From: a virus
Taxonomy: Duplodnaviria; Heunggongvirae; Uroviricota; Caudoviricetes
IMG/VR virus record: IMGVR_UViG_2654587571_000016
Length of the DNA stretch: 11,400 nt
Strand: one strand, 5' to 3'
The notes below the pieces were generated by a model. It did no database searches. It was not told the origin of the DNA and worked only from the letters and a program-made list of their open reading frames with translations. Shown here piece after piece: positions 1-11,400 of this stretch. Within the stretch, counting starts at the first letter, position 1. Each line of letters begins with the position of its first letter. The position numbers and the translations under genes are program-made.

Positions 1-696
1 GCCTTCATCAGTGGTAAGGCACCGGAAATCAAACCCTCGCCCGGCGGCAACACGCCATCGGGTCCGTCTGCAGATACGTCCGTTCGCACAATCTCCCTGC
101 TGCCGGCAGCCGGAGAGGCTGCTGCGCAGGGCTGGAGCATTAAGGATGGCGGAATTCAGTTGTCAGATGGTGTATTTAAGATCACCAAGCAGAGCAATAA
201 AACCTGGTCCCTGACGCATCCGGTGGATGACGCAATTACCCTGCTGACACAGGGCGGCAGACTGACCTGTAAGTTCCGCCTGTCAGGCGCACTGACCAAC
301 AATCAGTTCGGTCTGGGAATTTATCTGTATACCGATGTAGCGTTACCTGACGTCGTGGCGATGACCGGGACTGGTAACCCGTTCCTGATGTCGTTCTTCA
401 CCCAGACCACAGACGGCAAACTGAATCTGATGCATCACAAGAAAGCAGGAAACACAAAGTTGGGCGAGTTCGGGAATTACAGTAACGACTGGCAGACGCT
501 GGAGCTGGTGTTCACCGCCAGCAGTGCCACGGTTACTCCGAAACTGAATGGAGTGGCTGGCCCGGCATTCCAGGTCATAAAAGACAGTCTGACACTGGGG
601 CTGAATGCACTGACGCTGACGGATATTACCAAAAATGCAACGTATGGCGTTGAGATAGAAAGTCTGGTGCTGGAAATAAATAGTCCTGCAGCGTAA
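1..696 (+). CDS. Hypothetical protein, 5'-truncated by the window edge (at least 231 aa); predicted beta-rich, function unknown
   Basis: Frame 1 is open from base 1 to the TAA at 694-696 (the listed ORF 160..696 is its distal part); followed 24 nt later by the gpR-like gene with a GGAGA Shine-Dalgarno. I do not recognise the family. Confidence 0.55.
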   Translation, partial: AFISGKAPEIKPSPGGNTPSGPSADTSVRTISLLPAAGEAAAQGWSIKDGGIQLSDGVFKITKQSNKTWSLTHPVDDAITLLTQGGRLTCKFRLSGALTNNQFGLGIYLYTDVALPDVVAMTGTGNPFLMSFFTQTTDGKLNLMHHKKAGNTKLGEFGNYSNDWQTLELVFTASSATVTPKLNGVAGPAFQVIKDSLTLGLNALTLTDITKNATYGVEIESLVLEINSPAA

Positions 697-719
697 GGAA
701 GAACAGGAGAGCAAAACAG

Positions 720-1187
720 ATGCTTAAGACAAACAGCCTCCGGAAGGGCATGATTCATGGGTGTCGCTGGTGTCAGGCCAACCCGGAAAAATTCACCATT
801 TTCGTGGAGAGCGGCAACATTGAAACGACCGGAGAAACGCCCTCGTTTGTTTACCGCTATCAGATGGTGATGTTTGTCATGGATTACGCCGGGGAGCTGG
901 ACGACCTCACGCTGCCGCTACTGGCGTGGTTATCCGAAAATCAGCCGCAATTGTTGCTTAATCCGGAGCGTAATCAGGACATCAAATTCTCCGCCGTTAT
1001 CAATGACGATGACAGCGCCGATCTCCTGTTTACGCTCCCTCTGCGGGAACGCGTTCGCATCACGCGCAGCAGTCAGGGGGCACCGCAGGCAGAACACCTG
1101 CAGGAGCCAAAACCCCGTCTGCCATCTTCCGAAGGCGACTGGTCGCATGTATTCCAGGATGTGACGTGGGGTGAAAGCGATGGATAA
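720..1187 (+). CDS. P2 gpR-like tail completion protein (155 aa)
   Basis: ATG at 720 with GGAGA upstream; same length as P2 R (155 aa); sits immediately upstream of S, V, W, J, I, H, G homologs; stop overlaps the next start (ATGGATAA). Confidence 0.6.
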   Translation: MLKTNSLRKGMIHGCRWCQANPEKFTIFVESGNIETTGETPSFVYRYQMVMFVMDYAGELDDLTLPLLAWLSENQPQLLLNPERNQDIKFSAVINDDDSADLLFTLPLRERVRITRSSQGAPQAEHLQEPKPRLPSSEGDWSHVFQDVTWGESDG

Positions 1188-1815
1188 GGCATTCACCCGC
1201 GTGGATGAAACCTTTGAGGCTATCCGCGACAGCCTGAATCAGCAGGCCATCAATAACATCGCCAGAAAGCTGGCACAGGATTTACGCCGCGCCCAGCAGG
1301 CGCGTATCCGGTCACAGAAAGCGCCGGACGGGACCGCGTGGACACCACGCAGACGCCGCGCAACCCGGATACAGGAGCGCATTCGCTTTATCTGGAATAA
1401 CGAAGCACGCACGCTGAAAAACTGGCATCACGACACGGGGAAATACGGGCGAACCATTACCGGGTGGGATGAGGATAAAAACAATATCCGCACGTTTTAC
1501 CGGGATGACATCGACCGCTTTCTGGAAATACGCACCCGGCGCATCAACCAGGACAGCACAAAGCGCGTCCCCATGTTCGTAAAACTGCGCACCGCCCGCT
1601 ACCTGAAAGCCCGTGCAGATGCTTCCGGTGTGACGGTGGGTTACAGCGGCGTGGCCGCACGTATTGCCCGCGTTCATCAGTTCGGTGAGCGCGATCAGGT
1701 TGCGCCGGGCATTTTCACCGATTACCCGGTACGTGAGCTGTTGGGCATCAGTCAGGCAGATGAACGCCTGATTTATAACACGGTGCTGGGCCGGATTGCG
1801 GAGGCTGTACGGTGA
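1180..1815 (+). CDS. P2 gpS-like tail completion / virion morphogenesis protein
   Basis: ATG at 1180 overlaps the upstream stop (alternative GTG at 1171); its TGA overlaps the GTG start of the gpV homolog (GTGA); position and size fit the P2 S slot, though larger than P2 S. Confidence 0.55.
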   Translation: MDKAFTRVDETFEAIRDSLNQQAINNIARKLAQDLRRAQQARIRSQKAPDGTAWTPRRRRATRIQERIRFIWNNEARTLKNWHHDTGKYGRTITGWDEDKNNIRTFYRDDIDRFLEIRTRRINQDSTKRVPMFVKLRTARYLKARADASGVTVGYSGVAARIARVHQFGERDQVAPGIFTDYPVRELLGISQADERLIYNTVLGRIAEAVR

Positions 1816-2393
1816 GCGCAGAACTCATGCGACTGCTGAGCAACATCATCCGCACTGGGATCATCTCTGAAGTTGATGAGAAGTCCTGGTGCGTGCGCGT
1901 TCGCAGCGGCGAACTGGAAACAGGCTGGTTGCGCTGGAACACCACGCGCGCGGGAGCCTTCAATGTGTGGCTGCCGCCATCACCCGGCGAACAGGTGGTA
2001 ATTGCCTGCATTGGCGGCAACCCGGAAACCGCCATGATAATTGGCAGCCTGTGGAGTGATGCCAATCCGGCCCCCGGCAAAAGCCTGAAAGAAATCGTGG
2101 TCAGCGCGCCGGATGGCGCGGTGTTCCGCTACGACGCGGACGCAGGCGCACTGAGCGCCAGCGGCATGAAAACGGCCACCCTGCAGGCATCCGTCAGTGT
2201 GACACTGGACACGCCCGTCGTGGAATGCACAGACCTTCTGAGAACGGCGACGCTTGACGTCACAAAAGGGGGAAAGATGAGCGGCAATATCACGCACAGC
2301 GGCGGCAATTTCACCTCAAACGGCATCACAGTGCATACGCATAAACACGGTGGCGTTAAAGGTGGCAGCGATTCGACAGGAGGCCCGCAGTGA
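1812..2393 (+). CDS. Baseplate assembly protein V (P2 gpV-like spike/hub)
   Basis: 193 aa; N-terminal ...NIIRTGIISEVD... and the C-terminal ...VTKGGKMSGNITHSGGNFTSNGITVHTHKHGG... block match the gpV family as I recall it; GGAGG 8 nt upstream of GTG 1812; GTGA overlap with the W homolog. Confidence 0.85.
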   Translation: MSAELMRLLSNIIRTGIISEVDEKSWCVRVRSGELETGWLRWNTTRAGAFNVWLPPSPGEQVVIACIGGNPETAMIIGSLWSDANPAPGKSLKEIVVSAPDGAVFRYDADAGALSASGMKTATLQASVSVTLDTPVVECTDLLRTATLDVTKGGKMSGNITHSGGNFTSNGITVHTHKHGGVKGGSDSTGGPQ

Positions 2394-2740
2394 CAACCCG
2401 CTACACAGGAATGAACCCGGACGGAACGGGAAACCTGAACGATATGGAGCATCTGAAACAGTCAGTCAGGGACATCCTGACCACCCCGCTGGCAAGCCGG
2501 GTTATGCGACGGGAATATGGCAGCCTTGTGCCCGATTTAATTGACGAACCCATGAATAACACCACTCGTCTGCAATGCATGAGTGCTGCCGTGATTGCGC
2601 TGACACGATGGGAACCCCGCATTGCCCTGGACGCCATCGACGTTGTCTGGAAGGCAGGAGGCCGCGCCGGGGTGACGCTGTCGGGCACTGTCATGCAGAC
2701 CATGCAGAATGTTGAATTAACCATCACGCTGAGGGAGTAA
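2390..2740 (+). CDS. Baseplate wedge protein W (P2 gpW / T4 gp25-like)
   Basis: 116 aa, the size of P2 W (115 aa); AGGAGG 7 nt upstream of GTG 2390; gp25/GPW-like sequence; directly followed by the gpJ homolog. Confidence 0.8.
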   Translation: MTTRYTGMNPDGTGNLNDMEHLKQSVRDILTTPLASRVMRREYGSLVPDLIDEPMNNTTRLQCMSAAVIALTRWEPRIALDAIDVVWKAGGRAGVTLSGTVMQTMQNVELTITLRE

Positions 2741-2743
2741 ATC

Positions 2744-3640
2744 ATGCCTGCCGTTGACCTTTCCCAGTTACCGGAACCCGCCATCATCGCGGAGCCTGAC
2801 TTTGAGGCAATTCTGGCTGACACAAAGGCCATGATGATTGCGTCCTATCCTGCCGAACAGCGTGAAGCCGTCTCCGCCGCGCTGGAGCTGGAATCGGAAC
2901 CCCTGAACGTTATCGCCCAGACAACAGCGTTTCGTGAAATGCTGTTACGCCAGCGGGTCAATGAGGGGGCACGCGCCTGCATGTTAAGCCACAGCGCCGG
3001 GACAGACCTGGACAACCTCGCGGGCAATATGAACACAAAGCGCCTGACCATCACTCCGGCAACGGATACCACCGACGCAGTGATGGAAAGTGACACCTCG
3101 CTGAGACTGCGGGCGCAGCGGGCGTACGATGGCCTGAGTGTTGCTGGCCCGTCAGGTGCATACGAGTATTTTGCCCGCAGCGCCAGCGGTCTGGTGCGTG
3201 ATGCGCGGGCTATCAGTCCGTCTCCGGCAAATGTGACGGTTTCCATCCTGTCCACTGAAGGCGACGGCACAGCAACGGAGGCGTTGCTTAATACCGTTCG
3301 CGCCGTTCTGAATGCAGAGGATACCCGCCCGGTGGCCGACCGCCTGACGGTACAGAGCGCCAGAATCGTGACATGGCGGCTGAATGCAAAACTGTACTTT
3401 TACCCCGGCCCGGAATCCGAACCTATTCTGGCGGCGGCTGAATCGTCGTTCAGGAAGTGGCTGGCTGAGCAGGGGCTTATCGGTCAGGACGTGGCGTTGT
3501 CCGCCATTGCTGCCGCACTGCATGTGCACGGTGTGCAACGCGTGGAGATAATCGAACCCACACAGAATATGGCCATCAGCGACATACAGGCGGCGCGCTG
3601 TGAGTCGTTCACCATCAGCGAAGGTGGGCGCAATGAGTAA
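2744..3640 (+). CDS. Baseplate assembly protein J (P2 gpJ-like)
   Basis: 298 aa (P2 J is about 302 aa); ATG 2744 with GAGGGAG upstream; stop overlaps the gpI start (ATGAGTAA). Confidence 0.85.
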   Translation: MPAVDLSQLPEPAIIAEPDFEAILADTKAMMIASYPAEQREAVSAALELESEPLNVIAQTTAFREMLLRQRVNEGARACMLSHSAGTDLDNLAGNMNTKRLTITPATDTTDAVMESDTSLRLRAQRAYDGLSVAGPSGAYEYFARSASGLVRDARAISPSPANVTVSILSTEGDGTATEALLNTVRAVLNAEDTRPVADRLTVQSARIVTWRLNAKLYFYPGPESEPILAAAESSFRKWLAEQGLIGQDVALSAIAAALHVHGVQRVEIIEPTQNMAISDIQAARCESFTISEGGRNE

Positions 3641-4163
3641 TTCACTGTTACCACCATCAGCCAGCAGTTTCATGCGTTGTGCCGAAGCTGTCGGAACGCG
3701 CATTACAGACATCCCGGTAGACCTCAACACGCTGTGGTCGCCGGACACCTGCCCGGTGCACCTGCTGCCTTATCTCGCCTGGGCATTTTCCGTTGACCGC
3801 TGGGATCGCAACTGGCCGGAAGAGACAAAACGACAGGTGATTCGTGATGCATGGCTGATACACCGACACAAAGGGACCATCAGCGCACTGCGCAGGGCCA
3901 TTGAGCCGCTGGGATACCTCATTCGCGTGTCTGAGTGGTGGGAGTTCGGCGGAGAACCGGGAACATTTACCGTTGAAGTCGGCACACTGGACAGTGGCGT
4001 GACGGAGGAAATGTATCTGGAAATGGAGCGGTTGATTGCTGATGCCCGTCCGGTCAGCCGCCACATGACAGGGCTGAATATCATTCAGGAAATTCCGGGG
4101 GATATTTTTGCAGCGGCGGCAACTCATGACGGTGAAGTTATTACCATTTATCCGGACGATTAA
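3633..4163 (+). CDS. Tail/baseplate protein I (P2 gpI-like)
   Basis: 176 aa when started at ATG 3633 (the upstream in-frame ATG 3600 lies inside gpJ and is unlikely); AAGGTGG Shine-Dalgarno; same size as P2 I; stop 2 nt before the gpH start. Confidence 0.8.
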
Positions 4164-4165
4164 GC

Positions 4166-6298
4166 ATGAGTACCACAACACGAAAATTTAAAACCGTTAT
4201 CACCGATACAGGTGCCAAAAAATTAGCTCAGGCAGCCGCGCCAGATGGTAAGCCTGTCCGCCTGACTCATATGGCCGTGGGCGACGGTGGCGGCGCGTTG
4301 CCCACACCAGACAGTAAGCAGACCCGTCTGGTGCATGAGGTGTGGCGACACACTGTTAATCGCGTCATCCTGGACGCAACACATCAGAACCGCATTATTG
4401 CGGAGCTGGTTATTCCTCCAGAAACGGGCGGATTCTGGATCCGGGAAATTGGTGTTTTTGATGAGCACGGCGATTTAATCGCGGTGGGCAATACTGCCGA
4501 AAGTTACAAGCCAGCCGTTGCCGAAGGGTCCGGACGTGCACAAACATTTCGCACCATTCTGACCGTATCCAGCACTGCCACTGTGGCGCTTACCGTGGAT
4601 AACACCATGGTGATGGCCACAGTGGATTACGTGGATAACAAACTGAAAGAGCATGAACAGTCACGATGTCACCCGGATGCCTCGCTGACCGCAAAAGGCT
4701 TTGTTCAACTCAGTAGCGCCACTAACAGCGATTCTGAAACGCTGGCTGCAACGCCGAAAGCGGTTAAGGTCGCGTATGATCTTGCTAACGGAAAATATAC
4801 AGCGCAGGATGCCACAACAGCGCGAAAAGGCCTTGTCCAGCTTAGTAGTGCAACCAACAGTACATCTGAAACGCTGGCGGCAACATCAAATGCAGTAAAA
4901 GCTGCCTATGACAATGCTGAAAAACGTCTGCAGAAAGCTAAGAATGGTGAGGATATCTCTGATAAAGACACCTTTACGAAAAATATCGGTGCCTGCCGTG
5001 CATATAGTGCAGAGCTGAATATTGGTGGAGATAGTGAAGCATGGACAACTGCGCAGTTGATTTTTTGGCTAGAGAGTCAGGGGGCATTTAACCATCCTTA
5101 CTGGATGTGCAAAGGCTCATGGGCTTATGCAAATAATAAGGTCATTACAGATACAGGTTGCGGAAGTATTTGTCTTGCAGGTGCTGTTGTGGAAGTTATT
5201 GGCACCCGCGGCGCAATGACCATACGCATTACCACACCGAGTACATCCAGCGGTGAAGGCATCCCTAATGCTCAATTTACTTATATTAATCATGGTGATG
5301 CTTATGCTCCTGGCTGGCGAAGGGACTATAACTCCAGGAATAAGCCAACAGCATCAGAGATCGGGGCGTTACCGTCAGATGGGACAGCAGTATCGTCAGT
5401 TAATCTGGCTTCAAAAGGTCGGCTGACCGCCCTGACAGATAATATGCAGGGGGCCACAGGTCTGGAGTTATACGAGGCGTATAACAACGGATATCCAACA
5501 ACGTATGGAAATATCATTCACCTGAAAGGGATGACAGCCGTTGGCGAAGGCGAATTACTCATCGGCTGGAGTGGTATAAGCGGTGCTCATGCTCCGGCAT
5601 TTATTCGTTCACGACGGGATACGCCCGACGCAAACTGGTCGCCGTGGGCGCAGCTTTACACCTCGGCTCATCCTCCTGAAGAGTTTTATCCAGTCGGTGC
5701 ACCGATTCCGTGGCCATCAGATACCGTTCCGTCTGGTTATGCCCTGATGCAGGGGCAGACTTTTGACAAATCTGCATACCCGAAACTTGCAGTCGCTTAT
5801 CCGTCAGGCGTTATTCCTGATATGCGTGGCTGGACGATTAAGGGCAAGCCCGGCAGTGGTCGTGCCGTATTGTCTCAGGAACAGGACGGCATTAAATCGC
5901 ACACCCACAGCGCCAGCGCATCCAGTACGGATTTGGGGACGAAAACCACATCGTCGTTTGATTACGGTACTAAAACGACCAGTTCATTTGATTACGGCAC
6001 AAAAACTACGAATAGCGCTGGAAATCATTCACACAATATACCTGTTGGTCACACTGGCGCGGGGAATGGTGTATCAGCCGGTTATAACGCTGCGTTAGGT
6101 ACTGGTACCACGTCGAGCGCAGGCGAGCATGCTCACAATGTATATATCGGTGCCCATAACCACACTATCGGCATTGGTGCTCATGCCCATTCTGTCATTA
6201 TTGGTCCCCACGGACACACCATCACCGTTAACGCTACGGGTAACGAAGAAAACACCGTAAAAAACATCGCATTTAACTATATTGTGAGGCTTGCATAA
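4166..6298 (+). CDS. Tail fiber protein (P2 gpH-like N-terminus and repeat region, His-rich receptor-binding C-terminus)
   Basis: 710 aa; the N-terminus (..[45 protein letters not shown]..) and the duplicated ..[21 protein letters not shown].. block match P2 H as I recall it; C-terminus carries repeated HxH motifs (HSHN, EHAHN, AHNH, AHAHS, HGH). Confidence 0.9.
4694..4912 (+). repeat. Diverged internal direct duplication in the tail-fiber gene (two ~87-nt copies, 4694-4780 and 4826-4912)
   Basis: Protein repeats [29 protein letters not shown] / [29 protein letters not shown]; the DNA copies are clearly related but diverged. Confidence 0.7.
5936..6016 (+). repeat. 30-nt tandem repeat, about 2.7 copies, encoding [10 protein letters not shown] units within the tail-fiber gene
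   Basis: Read directly: gggacgaaaaccacatcgtcgtttgattac / ggtactaaaacgaccagttcatttgattac / ggcacaaaaactacgaatagc. Confidence 0.8.
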
Positions 6299-6876
6299 TG
6301 ACATTCAGAATGAGTGAACACTCACGGACCATAAAAATTTATAATCTACTGACCGGAACCAATGAGTTTATTGGTGAAGGTGATGCATACATTCCACCTC
6401 ATACAGGTCTGCCTGCAAACAGTACCGATATTGCCCCGCCAGATATTCCGGCTGGCTTCGTGGCCGTTTTCAACAGTGATGAGGCATCGTGGCATCTCGT
6501 TGAAGACCATCGGGGTAAAACGGTTTATGACGTGGCATCAGGGGACTCGTTATTTATTTCTGAACTCGGTCCATTACCGGAAAATGTTACCTGGTTGTCG
6601 CCGTATGGAGAGTATCAGAAGTGGAACGGCACATCCTGGGTGAAAGATGCAGAAGCAGAAAAACTGTTTCGGATAAGGGAGGCGGAAGAAACAAAAAACA
6701 GCCTGATGCAGGTAGCCAGCGAGCATATTGCGCCACTTCAGGATGCCGTAGATTTGGATATTGCAACGGAGGAAGAGGCATCGTTACTGGCTGCATGGAA
6801 GACATACCGGGTATTGTTGAATCGTGTTAATACAGCGGTAGCAGCGGATGTTGAGTGGCCAGTCGCCCCACAATAA
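6298..6876 (+). CDS. Tail fiber assembly chaperone (Tfa; P2 gpG / lambda Tfa family)
   Basis: 192 aa; C-terminal ..[39 protein letters not shown].. is the Tfa signature as I recall it; start overlaps the gpH stop (TAATG). Confidence 0.85.
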
Positions 6877-6882
6877 AGAGAA

Positions 6883-6912
6883 AAAGCCATCGATTGAAAT
6901 ATAGATGGCTTT
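6883..6912. terminator. Hairpin between convergent genes (possible bidirectional terminator, better for the minus-strand transcript)
   Basis: aaagccatc-N12-gatggcttt, 9-bp stem; on the minus strand it is followed by a TTTTTCTCT run; lies 7-8 nt from both stop codons. Confidence 0.3.
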
Positions 6913-6919
6913 ATGTACT

Positions 6920-7492
6920 CTATTTATACAATACAACACCGCTCTTTTTAGTTATATATGTGCAGTTCGATGGTATATCTTTATTTATAAAAGACATTGC
7001 ACCTATTTTTACATTATCCCCAATTTTACGTGATAATCCAATGATGCAACAATTAGCTCCGATATCAACGTTACTACCAATTTTTACTCTTGAACCAGGC
7101 ATGTCACCATCTATCTGTCCAATGGTAGTATTCTGTCGTAACACCAGATTTTCACCAGCATCAACAGCAAAATGAACAACAATTCCAGCATGATGGGGAA
7201 TTGTTAACCCTTTTCCAATATTTGCGCCCAATCCAATTTCACAACCAAATTTGTTAATTATTTTACTGTTTAACTTTTTGGCTGCTTTCTTATGTAATTT
7301 ATTACCATTAATATACATTTCGTTAGCCAACCGCCACCAGAAAAGGAAATTCCGGTTACGCTGTTTTTTCTCTCTTAAAAGCCTCCAGATATCCATACGT
7401 TTCCGCCGAATTACTTCATATTTCCAGAAGTTTTTTAAATTAGTAGAGTCCCCAAATAAAACAAAGTGAATTGCCATTAAGTAAGACAGCAC
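6920..7492 (-). CDS. Hexapeptide-repeat acetyltransferase (WcaB/CysE/WbbJ-like left-handed beta-helix O-acetyltransferase); low-GC cargo gene
   Basis: Hexapeptide signature ..GCEIGLGANIGKGLTIPHHAGIVVHFAVDAGENLVLRQNTTIG..IGSNVDIGANCCIIG..; by inspection much lower GC than the flanking tail genes. Start uncertain: GTG 7492 has GGAGA 5 nt upstream; alternatives are ATG 7477 and the longest-ORF GTG 7525. Confidence 0.75.
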   Translation of the reverse strand: MLSYLMAIHFVLFGDSTNLKNFWKYEVIRRKRMDIWRLLREKKQRNRNFLFWWRLANEMYINGNKLHKKAAKKLNSKIINKFGCEIGLGANIGKGLTIPHHAGIVVHFAVDAGENLVLRQNTTIGQIDGDMPGSRVKIGSNVDIGANCCIIGLSRKIGDNVKIGAMSFINKDIPSNCTYITKKSGVVLYK

Positions 7493-7648
7493 GATAATCT
7501 CCTTAATTATTATTTCAGACCACACATATTATAAGGTTAAGAGATTATAAAATCCTGTTGTTTGTTATTCAAAAACAATTTTCTGAGAAGGACATACAAC
7601 AGCAAGTCGCCAGTCACCTTCATCAGGAAATTGGCGACATACGTTAAA

Positions 7649-8143
7649 TCAGAGCAGCCCCTTAACTGAGCTGGTCGCGCTATTAAGGGATGATGTCACC
7701 TTATCTTTGAAGCCGGACAACATATCGCTGAACGATGAGGATTGCAGGCGCTCCCGCAAATCCTCATCACAGCGTTCAAGAGTCAGTGAAAATTCTATCT
7801 TTTTCGCCTTACCGTAGCGATCAAACTCGGAGCGGGTCGTATTCGTTTCGGTCAGGACATACATGCCGTAAATCTGCCCGACGCCATCAATCAGAGGCCA
7901 GGGCCGTCCTGTATACGCCTGCGTGGTCAGCAGAGACAGCGACACTTCGCCACCTGTAATTTCAGGATAAAGCACACCAGAAAGAACGATGCGATCATCA
8001 CCTGCACCGATATACTGCCAGCTTGCTGAACGGTTAACGCGTTCATTTTTCACATGCCGCCAGCTTTTGTTTTGCTGTAACTGCTGATGCGGCAGCGTGC
8101 GCAGCTCAAAAACAAACATGCCATAGATCATCATCATGGCCAT
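7649..8143 (-). CDS. P2 gpU-like tail protein, orphan and in inverted orientation relative to the tail operon
   Basis: 164 aa; N-terminal MMMIYGMFVFELRTLP..WRH...RVNR and ..WPLIDGVGQIYGMYVLTE..IEFSLTLER resemble the gpU family from memory; normal GC, flanked by low-GC DNA. Confidence 0.6.
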   Translation of the reverse strand: MAMMMIYGMFVFELRTLPHQQLQQNKSWRHVKNERVNRSASWQYIGAGDDRIVLSGVLYPEITGGEVSLSLLTTQAYTGRPWPLIDGVGQIYGMYVLTETNTTRSEFDRYGKAKKIEFSLTLERCDEDLRERLQSSSFSDMLSGFKDKVTSSLNSATSSVKGLL

Positions 8144-8205
8144 GACTCCTCAATCTTTATCGTAAAAGTTTCAATGCTTTTTCCTGCGGAGGTAAGGGAT
8201 ATGTA

Positions 8206-8508
8206 GTGTTCAGTTGGCTGAGAACTTCAACAATTATCAGACGTTTTATACGGACACTAATTAAGATCCCAGCTAACAGGATGTTCAATACCCTTCTGTA
8301 TTTTTTCTTCACAAAGGCCGAAAATACATATTCATCCCCTGAGTGGTGGGACAGGCTCAGTGATAAACAGCGAGAGAATATCGGCAACATGATTATGTCA
8401 GGGGTTGAATTTTTTGGCAGACCTACATCACAGGTTGATCATTCCGTTGATTATAACGCCGCTGCACTTGAAGAGATAACATGCAGCAACAACGAAATTT
8501 GCAGCTGA
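8206..8508 (+). CDS. Hypothetical small protein (75-100 aa), low GC, unknown function
   Basis: ORF with a GTG start at 8206 (GGAGG about 14 nt upstream) or ATG at 8281; no recognisable family; weak translation signals, so it may not be expressed. Confidence 0.3.
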   Translation: MFSWLRTSTIIRRFIRTLIKIPANRMFNTLLYFFFTKAENTYSSPEWWDRLSDKQRENIGNMIMSGVEFFGRPTSQVDHSVDYNAAALEEITCSNNEICS

Positions 8509-8738
8509 ATGTTTACATGCTGTTAGAAAAAGCGGGCTGAACAATCATTTCGGGATTGTAACAGATAAGATGGCACTGCCCGCTTGCTTCCCGATATGCA
8601 CCTCAGCCAATAAACTTATGTAAGCAACCGATTTCCATTTATGCGGAGGTTATCAAAGTTGTTGGAGTTGCGAACTTCCGCTCTTCGCACAAAGCGTACC
8701 GCTAGGTTTGATTGTATTCTGGCTGCGCAAACTGTCAG

Positions 8739-8767
8739 TTGGAGTCTGAGCTATTACAACTTAGAAT
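8739..8767 (+). promoter_or_regulatory. Candidate sigma70 promoter for the ogr-like gene
   Basis: TTGGAG (8739-8744), 17-nt spacer, TAGAAT (8762-8767); about 30 nt upstream of ATG 8798. Confidence 0.25.
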
Positions 8768-8797
8768 AGCGGCAGCACCACGTTAAGGGAGGTCGCT

Positions 8798-9058
8798 ATG
8801 TTCCGTTGTCCGCTTTGTGGCGCATCTGCCCGAATCCGCACCAGTCGTCCGGAAAACGATTCAAACACTGTGCGGCAAAAGTATTACCAGTGTAACAACC
8901 TGGAATGCGGCGTATGCTTCTCAACACTGGAAGCTTTCCATAAATTCACATCAAAACACGCCTCCGGCGTTCACTCTTCGGAAGGTATCCCGTGGCATGA
9001 GCTGCCAGCTTCACACAGGGGAAACAATCAGATGAGTTTGCCTTTACCTCAGAATTAA
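8798..9058 (+). CDS. ogr: Ogr/Delta-family zinc-finger late transcription activator (P2 Ogr-like, with C-terminal extension)
   Basis: MFRCPLCGASARIRTSR...YYQCNNLEC: the CxxC...CxxxxC zinc-finger layout and MF.CPLC start of Ogr/Delta; strong Shine-Dalgarno (AAGGGAGG); 86 aa against about 72 aa for P2 Ogr. Confidence 0.8.
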   Translation: MFRCPLCGASARIRTSRPENDSNTVRQKYYQCNNLECGVCFSTLEAFHKFTSKHASGVHSSEGIPWHELPASHRGNNQMSLPLPQN

Positions 9059-9067
9059 CAGGCAGAA

Positions 9068-9096
9068 TTGCCGGAGTAACAAAAAAACGATAGATT
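9068..9096 (+). promoter_or_regulatory. Candidate promoter for the hok mRNA (long structured leader expected)
   Basis: TTGCCG (9068-9073), 17-nt spacer, TAGATT (9091-9096), about 150 nt upstream of the hok ATG, in line with the long leaders of hok-family mRNAs. Confidence 0.2.
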
Positions 9097-9248
9097 ACCC
9101 GCGGGTGCCTTTCGGCTGATGGTCGGAGGAATACCCGAAGGCCGGATGTGGAAAGGCCCCGGAAAACATTTCTGTTTAACCGAGGCCCTAACATATCTAC
9201 CTTAAGCAAGTGATAGGTTAGCGCCTCTCCAACAAAGGAGCAAGCGCT

Positions 9249-9389
9249 ATGTCGCAAAAATCGCTTACAGCCATCACGTTCTGCGTGACGGTAATCCTCA
9301 TCATCTGGATGCTACACGGTTCGCTGTGTGAAATACGGATGAGCTTCTGGGGAGCGGAGTTTGCGGCGTTCTTACAGTGTAAGCAGTAA
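9249..9389 (+). CDS. hok: Hok/Gef-family type I toxin (46 aa membrane peptide)
   Basis: MSQKSLTAITFCVTVILIIWMLHGSLCEIRMSFWGAEFAAFLQCKQ: hydrophobic N-terminal helix followed by the conserved SLCEIR...AAF(L/M) motif shared with HokA/HokC as I recall them; AAAGGAG Shine-Dalgarno 8 nt upstream; missed by the 60-aa ORF track. Confidence 0.8.
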   Translation: MSQKSLTAITFCVTVILIIWMLHGSLCEIRMSFWGAEFAAFLQCKQ

Positions 9390-9398
9390 GGAAACCGC

Positions 9399-9420
9399 GA
9401 CGGGGGAGCAATCCCCCGTC
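9399..9420 (+). other. GC-rich perfect hairpin in the hok 3' UTR (possible mRNA stability or fold-back element)
   Basis: gacggggga-gcaa-tcccccgtc: 9-bp perfect stem, 4-nt loop, no U-run after it. Confidence 0.4.
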
Positions 9421-9475
9421 AATCGGTTGCTAAGGTTGGCTGAAGTGGCACCCTATCTCACAGACATGAACAACA

Positions 9476-9509
9476 AACCCGCAGCGTAAGAACTGCGGGT
9501 TTTCTTTTT
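9476..9509 (+). terminator. Intrinsic terminator of the hok transcript (possibly bidirectional)
   Basis: cccgcag-cgtaagaa-ctgcggg followed by TTTTCTTTTT. Confidence 0.6.
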
Positions 9510-9577
9510 GGAACAATCACTAGCTAGTGTACCGTTAACGGCACATAATGCTCGCACAACAAACCTGTTAAAAGAGA

Positions 9578-9859
9578 TTACTCAGCATTCTCCTGCTTCC
9601 ATTGCCGGATCATTTCATCGGTAACATCACCCTCATAACATACCACGTCATACCCTCCATTACGGCTATATGCACTGCGTCCACCACATCTACTACCATT
9701 CCTTGCATGATTATAAGGACACGCACAATTGCCTGGATAAGATTCAATGGATTCTTTAATTATTTCTTTTTTGATCTGAGCATCAGACTTTCCTGTTGCT
9801 GCATATCCACTAAAAGATACTAAACAAAGGCAGATTGCCATTAATAAACCACATCGCAT
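9578..9859 (-). CDS. Small secreted cysteine-rich protein of unknown function (about 93 aa, predicted signal peptide)
   Basis: Taking ATG 9859 gives MRCGLLMAICLCLVSFSGYA|ATG..., a signal-peptide-like N-terminus; mature part holds 5 Cys (..PGNCACPYNHARNGSRCGGRSAYSRNGGYDVVCYEGD..). The longest ORF runs to 9973 (TTG/ATG) but that extension is non-hydrophobic and lacks a Shine-Dalgarno. Confidence 0.5.
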   Translation of the reverse strand: MRCGLLMAICLCLVSFSGYAATGKSDAQIKKEIIKESIESYPGNCACPYNHARNGSRCGGRSAYSRNGGYDVVCYEGDVTDEMIRQWKQENAE

Positions 9860-10140
9860 ACCGATACACTCTATTACTAACCAATCATAGCCCACATCAT
9901 AAAATCGAGATGAGGAGTACAATACCTTTAACAAGAAGGTGTCATAACGATAATATGTCGTGCAATTCATCAAAAAAAAGATCTATATCAAAGAGATAGA
10001 ACTCTTATCAGTGCTTCAGACATCGGCATTCGAGGCAGCAGAAAAACAGTAAATCTGACGAATTTGCCTTTTCCCAAGATGTTGTCAGATTAAAAAGATA
10101 GATTAGCGCAGGTACCTGTTGGTGGATTGCAGGAGGAAAA

Positions 10141-10245
10141 ATGAAGTCGAGTGAAAAAATCCCAGAAAAATTTTTGTTTAACAGAGGTCCTGGTTCACTA
10201 TGCGAAATACGGAGGAGCTGCAGAAGAATTCTGCTTCATCCTTAG
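10141..10245 (+). pseudogene. Decayed hok-like paralog (34-codon ORF retaining the SLCEIR motif but lacking the transmembrane segment)
   Basis: MKSSEKIPEKFLFNRGPGSLCEIRRSCRRILLHP; DNA homology to the intact hok both in the coding region (ggttcactatgcgaaatacgga vs ggttcgctgtgtgaaatacgga) and upstream (gatagattagcgca vs gataggttagcgcc); AGGAGG Shine-Dalgarno retained. Confidence 0.4.
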
Positions 10246-10329
10246 AGTTTAAACAGCACGTGCACTACCATTGTTTCTGCATATCGCCACACCATCGCCA
10301 CTCTACCGCCATTGCACAAAATACAAATA

Positions 10330-10355
10330 CGAAAAAACCACCCGAAGGTGGTTTC
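10330..10355 (-). terminator. Intrinsic terminator of the glyW-cysT-leuZ tRNA operon
   Basis: On the minus strand: aaaccacc-ttcg-ggtggttt hairpin followed by a TTTTTT run, about 40 nt after the leuZ 3' end. Confidence 0.6.
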
Positions 10356-10397
10356 ACGACACTGCTTATTGCTTTGATTTTATTCTTATCTTTCCCA

Positions 10398-10484
10398 TGG
10401 TACCCGGAGCGGGACTTGAACCCGCACAGCGCGAACGCCGAGGGATTTTAAATCCCTTGTGTCTACCGATTCCACCATCCGGGC
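10398..10484 (-). tRNA. leuZ: tRNA-Leu (anticodon UAA)
   Basis: The reverse complement matches E. coli tRNA-Leu(UAA) as I recall it (GCCCGGATGGTGGAATCGGTAGACACAAGGGATTTAAAATCCC...GGGTACCA), 87 nt including CCA. Confidence 0.95.
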
Positions 10485-10496
10485 TCGGGAAGAAAG

Positions 10497-10570
10497 TGGA
10501 GGCGCGTTCCGGAGTCGAACCGGACTAGACGGATTTGCAATCCGCTACATAACCGCTTTGTTAACGCGCC
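10497..10570 (-). tRNA. cysT: tRNA-Cys (anticodon GCA)
   Basis: The reverse complement matches E. coli tRNA-Cys as I recall it (GGCGCGTTAACAAAGCGGTTATGTAGCGGATTGCAAATCCG...CTCCA), 74 nt. Confidence 0.95.
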
Positions 10571-10624
10571 AAATTCTTCAGGCCTTTCAGCCAGACATCC
10601 GCTTGACGCCGATGTCTTTTAAAC

Positions 10625-10700
<76 letters not shown>

Positions 10701-10773
10701 ATTCATCAAGCAATCAGTTAATCACTTGATTTTATTATCGTCTGGCAATCAGTGCCGCCGTTCGATGCGTTGC

Positions 10774-10801
10774 ATTCTACTTACCTGGCGCGATGAGTCA
10801 A
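10774..10801 (-). promoter_or_regulatory. Candidate sigma70 promoter of the tRNA operon
   Basis: On the minus strand: TTGACT (10796-10801), 16-nt spacer, TAGAAT (10774-10779), with an AT-rich UP-like stretch further upstream; about 70 nt upstream of the glyW 5' end. Confidence 0.35.
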
Positions 10802-10851
10802 CGATATTTTTCACCACTTTTGATCGTTTGCTGAAAATTACGCCGAAACGA

Positions 10852-11400
10852 TCACTGATCAAGCAAATCTGCACGCGCAGCGCTCAAATATTGCAACATT
10901 GACCACAGAGTCAGTACCGCAGCCACAAAGAAAAGTGCAATACCGGCGTACTCAACCCAAATGTTCGGACGCCACAGCAGCCATGCCAACGCCACCATCT
11001 GGGCAGTGGTTTTCACTTTCCCAATCCAGGAGACGGCCACGCTACTGCGTTTACCCAACTCCGCCATCCATTCGCGTAGCGCAGAAATAATAATTTCACG
11101 GGCGATCATCGTTGCCGCCGGTAATGTCACCCACCAGCTGTGATAATGCTCGGTTACCAGCACCATGGCGATAGCCACGAGAACTTTATCTGCCACAGGG
11201 TCAAGGAAAGCACCAAACCGGGTACTCTGGTTCCAGCGGCGTGCCAGAAAACCATCGAACCAGTCAGTCACCGCCGCGACGCAGAAAATGAGCGCGGCGG
11301 CAAACGGCGACCAGGTGACAGGCAGATAAAAGACCAATACAAAGAATGGGATAAGGATGACACGGAACAGTGTAAGCAACGTAGGGATATTAAATTGCAT
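10852..11400 (-). CDS. pgsA: CDP-diacylglycerol--glycerol-3-phosphate 3-phosphatidyltransferase (phosphatidylglycerophosphate synthase)
   Basis: 182-aa [33 protein letters not shown]... with the CDP-alcohol phosphotransferase motif (DGFLAR..G..LDPVADK); the start codon is the last three bases of the window. Confidence 0.95.

Follow-up and report, generated by a model that had tools for sequence, protein, structure and literature searches.

An intact ogr gene in a tail-deleted P88-like prophage of Escherichia coli, probably an orphan late-gene activator

Among the described relatives of the gene analysed here are the 72-aa proteins Ogr of phage P2, B of phage 186 and Pag of phage PSP3, which share one Pfam family, are encoded downstream of D near attP and have dyad targets near -55. 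P4 delta (166 aa) belongs to the same Pfam family but is a covalent tandem duplication of Ogr-like domains carried on a satellite; it acts on the same class of late promoters as Ogr (PMC8628076). E. coli K-12 retains an ogr gene in the cryptic prophage PR-X, which measures 629 bp and consists of intact ogrK and a D fragment (yegZ), the remainder of the P2-like prophage having been lost. Both the protein studied here and the phenomenon of an orphan ogr are already known. The closest systems are P88 (NC_026014), PhiR44_2 (PV340564) and 500465-2, of which P88 is a plaque-forming, mitomycin-inducible phage (PMC5285337) assigned in its record to Xuanwuvirus, Peduoviridae (ICTV).

We analysed a window of 11,400 nucleotides (the whole stretch of DNA), which is E. 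coli chromosome and comprises the right half of a P2-family prophage followed by the pgsA, glyW, cysT, leuZ region. Its ogr ORF is very probably the late-gene activator native to a leuZ prophage of the P88-like type (Xuanwuvirus, P2 family), left as an intact orphan by a recent deletion private to this copy. The encoded protein shows 100% identity to those of 500465-2 and PhiR44_2 (translated ORFs); with the P88 protein the value is 98.8%, and with the one from 520873 it is 94%. With the first three (98.8–100% identity) the locus shares the length of 86 aa, the leader, the Shine-Dalgarno sequence and a downstream hok/sok locus; unlike in the window, D (or D and a YecA-family gene) and the FI/D late promoter are present upstream of ogr in these phages. 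Common to the window's protein and the 72-aa proteins are the four zinc cysteines, the RTSR and YxQC motifs and a hydrophobic C-terminal end of the Q-x-L/M-x-L type. However, identity amounts to only ~38–41% over the first 50–53 aa, the protein differs by 2 more aa in the zinc loop, an insertion of ~10 aa and 3 terminal aa, and in its lineage the tail operon FI-U has the opposite orientation to D-ogr. We count the value for P2 Ogr itself, ~41% over residues 1–53 only, as a point against the above assignment, along with the low NF007241 score, the altered spacing of the zinc loop and the chance-level proximal promoter described below. In comparison with K-12, where an intact ogr also lies in a prophage remnant, ogrK is of the 72-aa P2 type and occupies another chromosomal site, and the window still carries R-G and U. 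Identity to P4 delta is ~30%, although the delta C-terminus aligns with the tail motif of the long form.

The 86-aa Ogr protein and its tail

The ORF, its ribosome binding site and the regions of its product are located as follows:

8785..8792, + strand: Shine-Dalgarno sequence AAGGGAGG, its GGAGG core ending 5 nt ahead of the ATG; kept in P88, PhiR44_2 and RM8385
8798..9058, + strand: ogr ORF from the ORF list, 86 aa plus stop
8807-8809, 8816-8818, 8891-8893 and 8906-8908, + strand: zinc cysteine codons, from the alignment
8948..9055, + strand: low-confidence tail, residues 51-86 (AlphaFold pLDDT 45-62), holding the motif IPWHELPASHRGNNQMSLPL at 8987-9046

The protein matches the Pfam family Ogr_Delta (PF04606) over residues 3–49 with 52.4 bits against a cutoff of 26.3 (E 5e-14), and all close homologues also bear PF04606 according to precomputed annotation. 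Cysteines C4, C7, C32 and C37 are kept in 11 of 11 aligned sequences (P2 Ogr, 186 B, PSP3 Pag, P4 delta and seven long-form relatives) and are likewise invariant in a second alignment. The earlier note had described an intact zinc-finger activator of the Ogr/Delta type with a strong Shine-Dalgarno sequence; the Pfam match, the complete ORF and the GGAGG core agree with this, and alignment with Ogr, Delta and their relatives revealed no loss of zinc-coordinating cysteines. By analogy to the family, the protein would function as a zinc-binding, DNA-binding late activator that depends on RNA polymerase's alpha subunit. The NCBIfam model NF007241 (PRK09678, the OgrK/P2 Ogr equivalog) aligned to residues 1–61 only and scored 44.5 bits against a cutoff of 116. 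Judged by these scores, the 86-aa protein is a member of the Ogr family and not an equivalog of the 72-aa P2/K-12 protein.

Nucleotide substitutions within ogr fell on codon position 3 in 5 of 5 cases when compared with PhiR44_2, in 9 of 9 with P88 and in 15 of 20 with 520873. This bias indicates that the ogr frame is truly coding and under purifying selection in the lineage. Two overlapping ORFs at 8817-9035 (+) and 8946-9257 (-) were set aside, since the third-position bias backs the ogr frame alone.

A PDB sequence search with the 86-aa protein returned generic C2H2 finger matches only and no solved structure of a family member. The AlphaFold model, built on a 15-sequence alignment, predicts residues 1–50 as a three-stranded zinc ribbon with a pLDDT of ~90. 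This predicted part superposes on the N-terminal zinc ribbon of NrdR (PDB 7p37, 9fxk, 9gex) with 1.2–1.9 Å over 46–49 residues at 26–30% identity; Foldseek E-values are only 5e-3 to 4e-2 and the Zn_ribbon_NrdR match in Pfam is marginal. NrdR differs in being a repressor with an ATP-cone domain, and the modelled likeness is a resemblance of fold, not family membership.

P2 Ogr as read from NC_001895 has 72 aa, so that the difference of about 14 aa given in the earlier note is exact. The same note had taken the additional residues for a C-terminal extension. In the alignment they are instead spread over three places: 2 aa in the zinc loop, an internal insertion of ~10 aa and 3 terminal aa. The zinc loop reads CX2CX24CX4C and retains all four cysteines; the 2-aa insertion is specific to the P88-like group, the canonical spacing being quoted as CX2CX22CX4C (PMC3931495). 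Most of the extra length is accounted for by the tail motif. The ~10-aa insertion precedes the C-terminal end and is part of the conserved pattern IPxxx(L/F)PxSH(R/Y)GxxQ(L/M)xLx(L/I), which is common to the 80–94-aa relatives found in Klebsiella, Enterobacter and Salmonella phages. The hydrophobic end QMSLPL aligns with QIMWM in Ogr, RPLWL in B and QQLWL in Pag, and the P4 delta tail (ELPP...SLRL) aligns with the long form.

Ogr proteins of Novemvirus, Senquatrovirus and Klebsiella phages have 80–83 aa and align over 97–99% of the query, and a large protein search added relatives of 83–94 aa from E. albertii, Salmonella and Symbiopectobacterium. On the basis of these alignments, 86 aa is the normal form of the lineage, with counterparts in related Peduoviridae genera. 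The length is the standard one in P88-like phages and does not set the remnant apart. We know of no experiment on the 86-aa form and found none in the literature searched.

The ogr gene is present in 1,200 of 5,426 complete E. coli genomes (~22%) at ~90% or higher nucleotide identity. Carriers uniformly annotate it as "ogr/Delta-like zinc finger family protein" (RefSeq WP_000488107.1). In the P88 RefSeq entry NC_026014 (L002) the ogr ORF at 34476-34736 is unannotated, and in SEN5 (L008, 2504-2746) the note "late control protein ogr" has been placed on a short opposite-strand ORF instead.

The deletion and the late-promoter dyads

The prophage part of the window and its right-hand border contain the following features:

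720..6876, + strand: intact R-S-V-W-J-I-H-G genes for tail completion, baseplate and fibres (ORFs, RM8385 annotation)
7649..8143, - strand: gpU tail gene (Phage_P2_GpU in Pfam, 5.5e-39), now cut off from the operon promoter
8167..8168, no strand: deletion junction by comparison with RM8385, blunt and free of microhomology; 7,513 bp (L001 12056-19568) lost
8168..8508, + strand: 3' remnant of a YecA-family (SEC-C) cargo gene, 341 bp, in frame; the gene sits between D and ogr in the RM8385-type variant
9103..9389, + strand: hok/sok-type type I toxin-antitoxin locus; Hok CDS 9249-9389 (Pfam HOK_GEF, 3.7e-7)
10398..10484, - strand: tRNA-Leu gene leuZ, its 3' end facing the prophage, right-hand attachment side (ARAGORN, synteny)

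In the BLAST comparison with the intact prophage of E. coli O103 RM8385 (locus L001), window positions 1-8167 align to 3889-12055 with 99.99% identity and positions 8168-11400 to 19569-22801 with 99.85% identity. We count the near-identity of both flanks in favour of the assignment given above. The truncation of the tail cluster noted earlier is thereby real and could be mapped exactly. According to the RM8385 annotation the lost segment comprises T except for its last 5 codons, which survive at 8150-8167, as well as E, E', the tube gene FII, the sheath gene FI and D. It further includes the 157-bp FI/D intergenic region with its bidirectional late promoter and the first 799 of 1,140 bp of the YecA-family cargo gene, whose remnant is separated from ogr by a spacer of 290 bp. 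With the tape-measure, sheath, tube, E, E' and D genes gone, this prophage copy, as judged from its gene content, cannot build tails.

None of 5,426 complete E. coli genomes contains the junction 8167|8168, nor did it turn up among GTDB representatives or in JGI metagenomes, and an exact-product look-up of the truncated YecA ORF gave no match. On this evidence the deletion is private, and its near-identical flanks indicate that it is recent; it might still be an assembly artefact.

Over R-H, U and ogr-hok the window shares 94.8–97.5% nucleotide identity with P88 and PhiR44_2, which places it among the P88-like prophages with an architecture interrupted by the deletion. In RM8385, P88, PhiR44_2 and ST131 the genes FI-FII-E-T-U occupy one strand and D-ogr-hok the opposite one. 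The order FI(-)/D(+)-ogr-hok occurs in P88, PhiR44_2, ST131, phiT5282H and SEN5; its FI(-)/D(+)-ogr core is seen in Novemvirus and Senquatrovirus phages. A position of ogr downstream of D near the attachment site was found in P88, PhiR44_2, ST131 and RM8385; the window has lost D and kept the synteny to leuZ/attR.

Further cargo was seen in this prophage half. A hexapeptide-repeat acetyltransferase gene of low GC (34%) at 6920-7525 (-) occupies, between G and U, the place of the Z/fun cargo hotspot of P2; its product resembles serine O-acetyltransferase and WcaB and stays below all NCBIfam cutoffs. Window positions 1-700 lie inside a cargo gene for a 626-aa DUF6645 protein; RM8385-type prophages carry this gene as an insertion that separates the lysis genes from R, and P88 and PhiR44_2 lack it. 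The Rfam family IS009 (RF02111) matched over its full length with 192 bits at 6641-6839 (+) inside the tail-fibre-assembly gene G, and this "sRNA" family may merely be a conserved piece of such phage genes.

Potential target sites were located with a dyad scan for GTTGT-N(11-13)-ACAAC scored by mismatches, for which the three activator sites annotated in P2 served as positive control. The best regional hits in P2 were the annotated sites pP/pO (3061-3082), pV (10241-10261) and pF (17559-17580). In the relatives of the window's prophage, each P/O and FI/D intergenic region yielded a single site with no more than 2 mismatches:

P88, P/O region: GTTCTGGCCGTTTTCTTACAAC
P88, PhiR44_2 and RM8385, FI/D region: GTTCTCCCGCCACGGCGACAAC (in RM8385 at L001 17190-17211, inside the segment deleted from the window)
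SEN5, FI/D region: GTTGTCAGCAACCTGCAACAAT
phiT5282H, FI/D region: GGTCTGGCCGGACGGCGACAAC

By chance, a 157-bp region would hold a dyad with no more than 1 mismatch at a probability of the order of 0.005. These sites lie 70–88 nt from both flanking start codons, like the shared pP/pO site of P2. From this we infer that the P88-like lineage probably uses activation of the P2 type from two bidirectional regions, P/O and FI/D.

By analogy to the family, the N-terminal zinc ribbon (~50 aa) would bind an imperfect dyad of the GTTGT-N12-ACAAC type near -55 of the late promoters, for which the two divergent intergenic regions P/O and FI/D offer candidate sites, and the bound Ogr would recruit RNA polymerase. 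Since ogr lies just downstream of D in intact phages, both genes probably share a transcript from the late D promoter there, to which a weak proximal promoter of ogr is possibly added. The D-ogr pair would then form a late, self-reinforcing transcription unit. The deletion of 7.5 kb has left ogr without a target site in the window and with a weak proximal candidate as its only possible promoter.

The earlier note had proposed a search for Ogr-dependent dyads in front of the tail operon. At a spacing of 12 nt and with at most 1 mismatch, the sole match in the window lies inside gene H (5467-5488), which corresponds to chance frequency, so that the window retains no credible late-promoter dyad of the P2 type. 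The tail region's only such dyad, the FI/D site GTTCTCCCGCCACGGCGACAAC, was removed by the deletion. A relaxed scan of the window (2 mismatches, or spacers of 11 or 13 nt) gave 27 hits, where ~14 were expected (4.7 for each spacer); spacers of 11 and 13 nt yielded about twice the expected number, and none of the hits occupies a plausible promoter position. These hits, among them 8738-8760 (N13, 1 mismatch, overlapping the candidate -35) and 8658-8678 (N11, 2 mismatches), are probably due to chance. A simpler TGT-N12-ACA pattern, with 1 hit in the window (9528-9545) against 3.2 expected, was dropped as a detector because it misses all three annotated P2 sites. In RM8385 (L001 18744-18761) an exact dyad of this simpler pattern, TGTTTTTGTTATAGAACA, is located 9–26 nt upstream of the YecA-family cargo gene and is deleted in the window; being too near to the start codon for a -55 activator site, it may be an operator.

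As S and V overlap and R-G leave no gap for a pV-like promoter, the surviving R-G genes must depend on pO, which lies ~10 kb to the left, outside the window, and from which they would be transcribed. Action of this Ogr on the remnant tail operon cannot be shown from the window, the survival of pP/pO being a matter of the sequence outside it. It is plausible that this Ogr could trans-activate P2-like phages or P4-like satellites resident in the same host, because the sites of its own lineage are P2-type.

Upstream region and the ogr-hok end

Two elements were delimited in front of the ORF:

8739..8767, + strand: candidate sigma-70 promoter, TTGGAG (8739-8744), 17-nt spacer, TAGAAT (8762-8767), 8 of 12 positions matching the consensus
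8758..8797, + strand: leader block of 40 nt that every P88-like phage shares (in BLAST, 8757/8758 is where homology to P88 and PhiR44_2 sets in)

In cargo-free phages the D stop codon is located directly upstream of the leader block. The TAGAAT -10 and the Shine-Dalgarno sequence lie within this block and are kept in every relative examined, including the 91%-diverged orphan copy in KMi006. The -35, by contrast, falls in sequence that only the YecA-cargo variant has; at the corresponding position P88, PhiR44_2 and ST131 have a poor TAGCGG instead of TTGGAG. In position and quality the promoter called plausible in the earlier note matches the P2 ogr promoter annotated in NC_001895 (TTGTTT-17-TAAAAT), which also scores 8 of 12 and lies at nearly the same distance from the ATG, but the window holds 0.44 matches of this quality per 100 nt, i.e. 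the candidate is at chance density, and a promoter scan called no + strand promoter in 8100-8797, the candidate included. The deletion took both upstream promoters, those of D and of the cargo gene, so that expression of the window's ogr, if any, would rest on the weak proximal element. A scan of 8500-9100 at Rfam gathering thresholds gave no match. The best sigma-70-like match of the region is found on the minus strand at 8711-8738 (CTGACA-16-TACAAT, 10 of 12), back to back with the candidate ogr promoter, and since the deletion it has pointed toward the orphaned gpU.

Directly downstream of ogr lies the hok/sok locus, which travels with ogr in P88, PhiR44_2, ST131, O157:H7 and KMi006. The hok leader scores 46.7 bits against Rfam sok, below the gathering score of 59. 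Further downstream, a bidirectional terminator-like hairpin (9475-9502) is followed by the near-perfect 18-bp palindrome TGTACCGTTAACGGCACA (9528-9545), where P88 homology ends. Between hok and leuZ a Cys-rich ORF with a signal-peptide-like N-terminus (9578-9973, -) is annotated as hypothetical (93 aa) in RM8385, O157:H7 and KMi006; it had no significant Pfam match (sub-threshold Sclerostin, E 0.004) and no NCBIfam match.

Two further degraded prophages at leuZ carry the same end. In the O157:H7 strain PV15-279 (L014 7010-12212), IS1203 and IS30 replace E', E, FII, FI and parts of T and D, and the YecA gene, an identical ogr and hok are kept. In KMi006 (L016 1-7301) only ogr-hok-orf is left, with the full 86-aa ORF, the Shine-Dalgarno sequence and the TAGAAT -10; its neighbours are fragments of IS3, a group II intron and an island with genes for TIR-domain proteins and type I restriction.

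Explanations for the retained gene

The presence of an intact ogr in a prophage without tails is most likely explained by position and not by selection for this copy: the gene lies at the far right end beside hok/sok and attR, and the deletion appears to be young. It could also be that ogr is intact but transcriptionally silent here, a functionless passenger bound to decay after the loss of the D and YecA-gene promoters, which we consider a possible though rather unlikely state of affairs. Both upstream promoters lie inside the deletion, the only candidate left is the uncalled 8/12 element at background density, and the poor -35 TAGCGG of the cargo-free phages suggests that the lineage relies mainly on read-through from D. 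Set against this, the annotated P2 ogr promoter is no better and equally far from the ATG, the -10 is conserved even in the diverged orphan of KMi006, and the phage needs some Ogr-independent source of its first Ogr molecules. Active retention of the ogr-hok end seems to us distinctly less probable than silence and on the whole improbable. It would mean that ogr-hok/sok is preferentially preserved in the decay of P88-like prophages, either because hok/sok addiction penalises deletions and ogr, 190 bp away, hitch-hikes, or because the host or P4-like satellites benefit from an orphan Ogr that is expressed constitutively and acts on satellite or incoming P2-like late promoters, which a standing supply of the long form could switch on. 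Intact ogr-hok has survived three independent degradations at leuZ (the window, O157:H7 PV15-279 and KMi006), in KMi006 despite the loss of every structural gene, and K-12 keeps ogrK within its short PR-X remnant. Slettan et al. (1992, J Bacteriol) reportedly found the cryptic ogr genes of K-12 and B to be functional, which we count on the same side, as well as the finding that Delta and Ogr each activate P2 and P4 late genes (PMC8628076). However, three degradations permit no statistics, and most internal deletions would, for purely geometrical reasons, spare a gene that sits at the very end beside att and tRNA genes. In addition, the window's deletion is too recent for decay, 5 of the 17 changed codons in KMi006 are non-synonymous and their divergence could pre-date its decay, and the window's sok match stays below the Rfam gathering score.

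A separate question concerns the tail, which could serve a "long Ogr" subfamily as a functional module in its own right and lend it properties unlike those of P2 Ogr, for instance by docking RNA polymerase or a regulator. Retention of the motif (IPxxxLPxSHxGxxQxxLxL) at 44–69% overall identity in proteins of Escherichia, Klebsiella, Enterobacter, Salmonella and Symbiopectobacterium, as well as its alignment with the P4 delta C-terminus, would fit such a role. Nevertheless we regard it as doubtful, if slightly less so than active retention: the region is modelled at low confidence, the close relatives P0025, P0030 and P0033 do without the motif, short motifs in such tails are often weakly constrained, and P2 Ogr with C-terminal truncations is said to stay active (Gebhardt et al. 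1993).

The "long" form of Ogr characterises the lineage, and its conserved tail motif has apparently not been dissected so far. Beyond correct annotation the importance of this gene is small, as it is a common, already named prophage gene and an orphan ogr has textbook precedent. The tail-defective prophage copy itself cannot be a helper on its own. If the ogr-hok end were actively retained, the long-form Ogr could prematurely or permissively activate the late promoters of incoming P2-like phages and resident P4-like satellites. If expressed, an orphan Ogr of this kind could sway the dynamics of P4-like satellites or P2-like phages wherever E. coli carries this gene, which is the case in about one genome in five.
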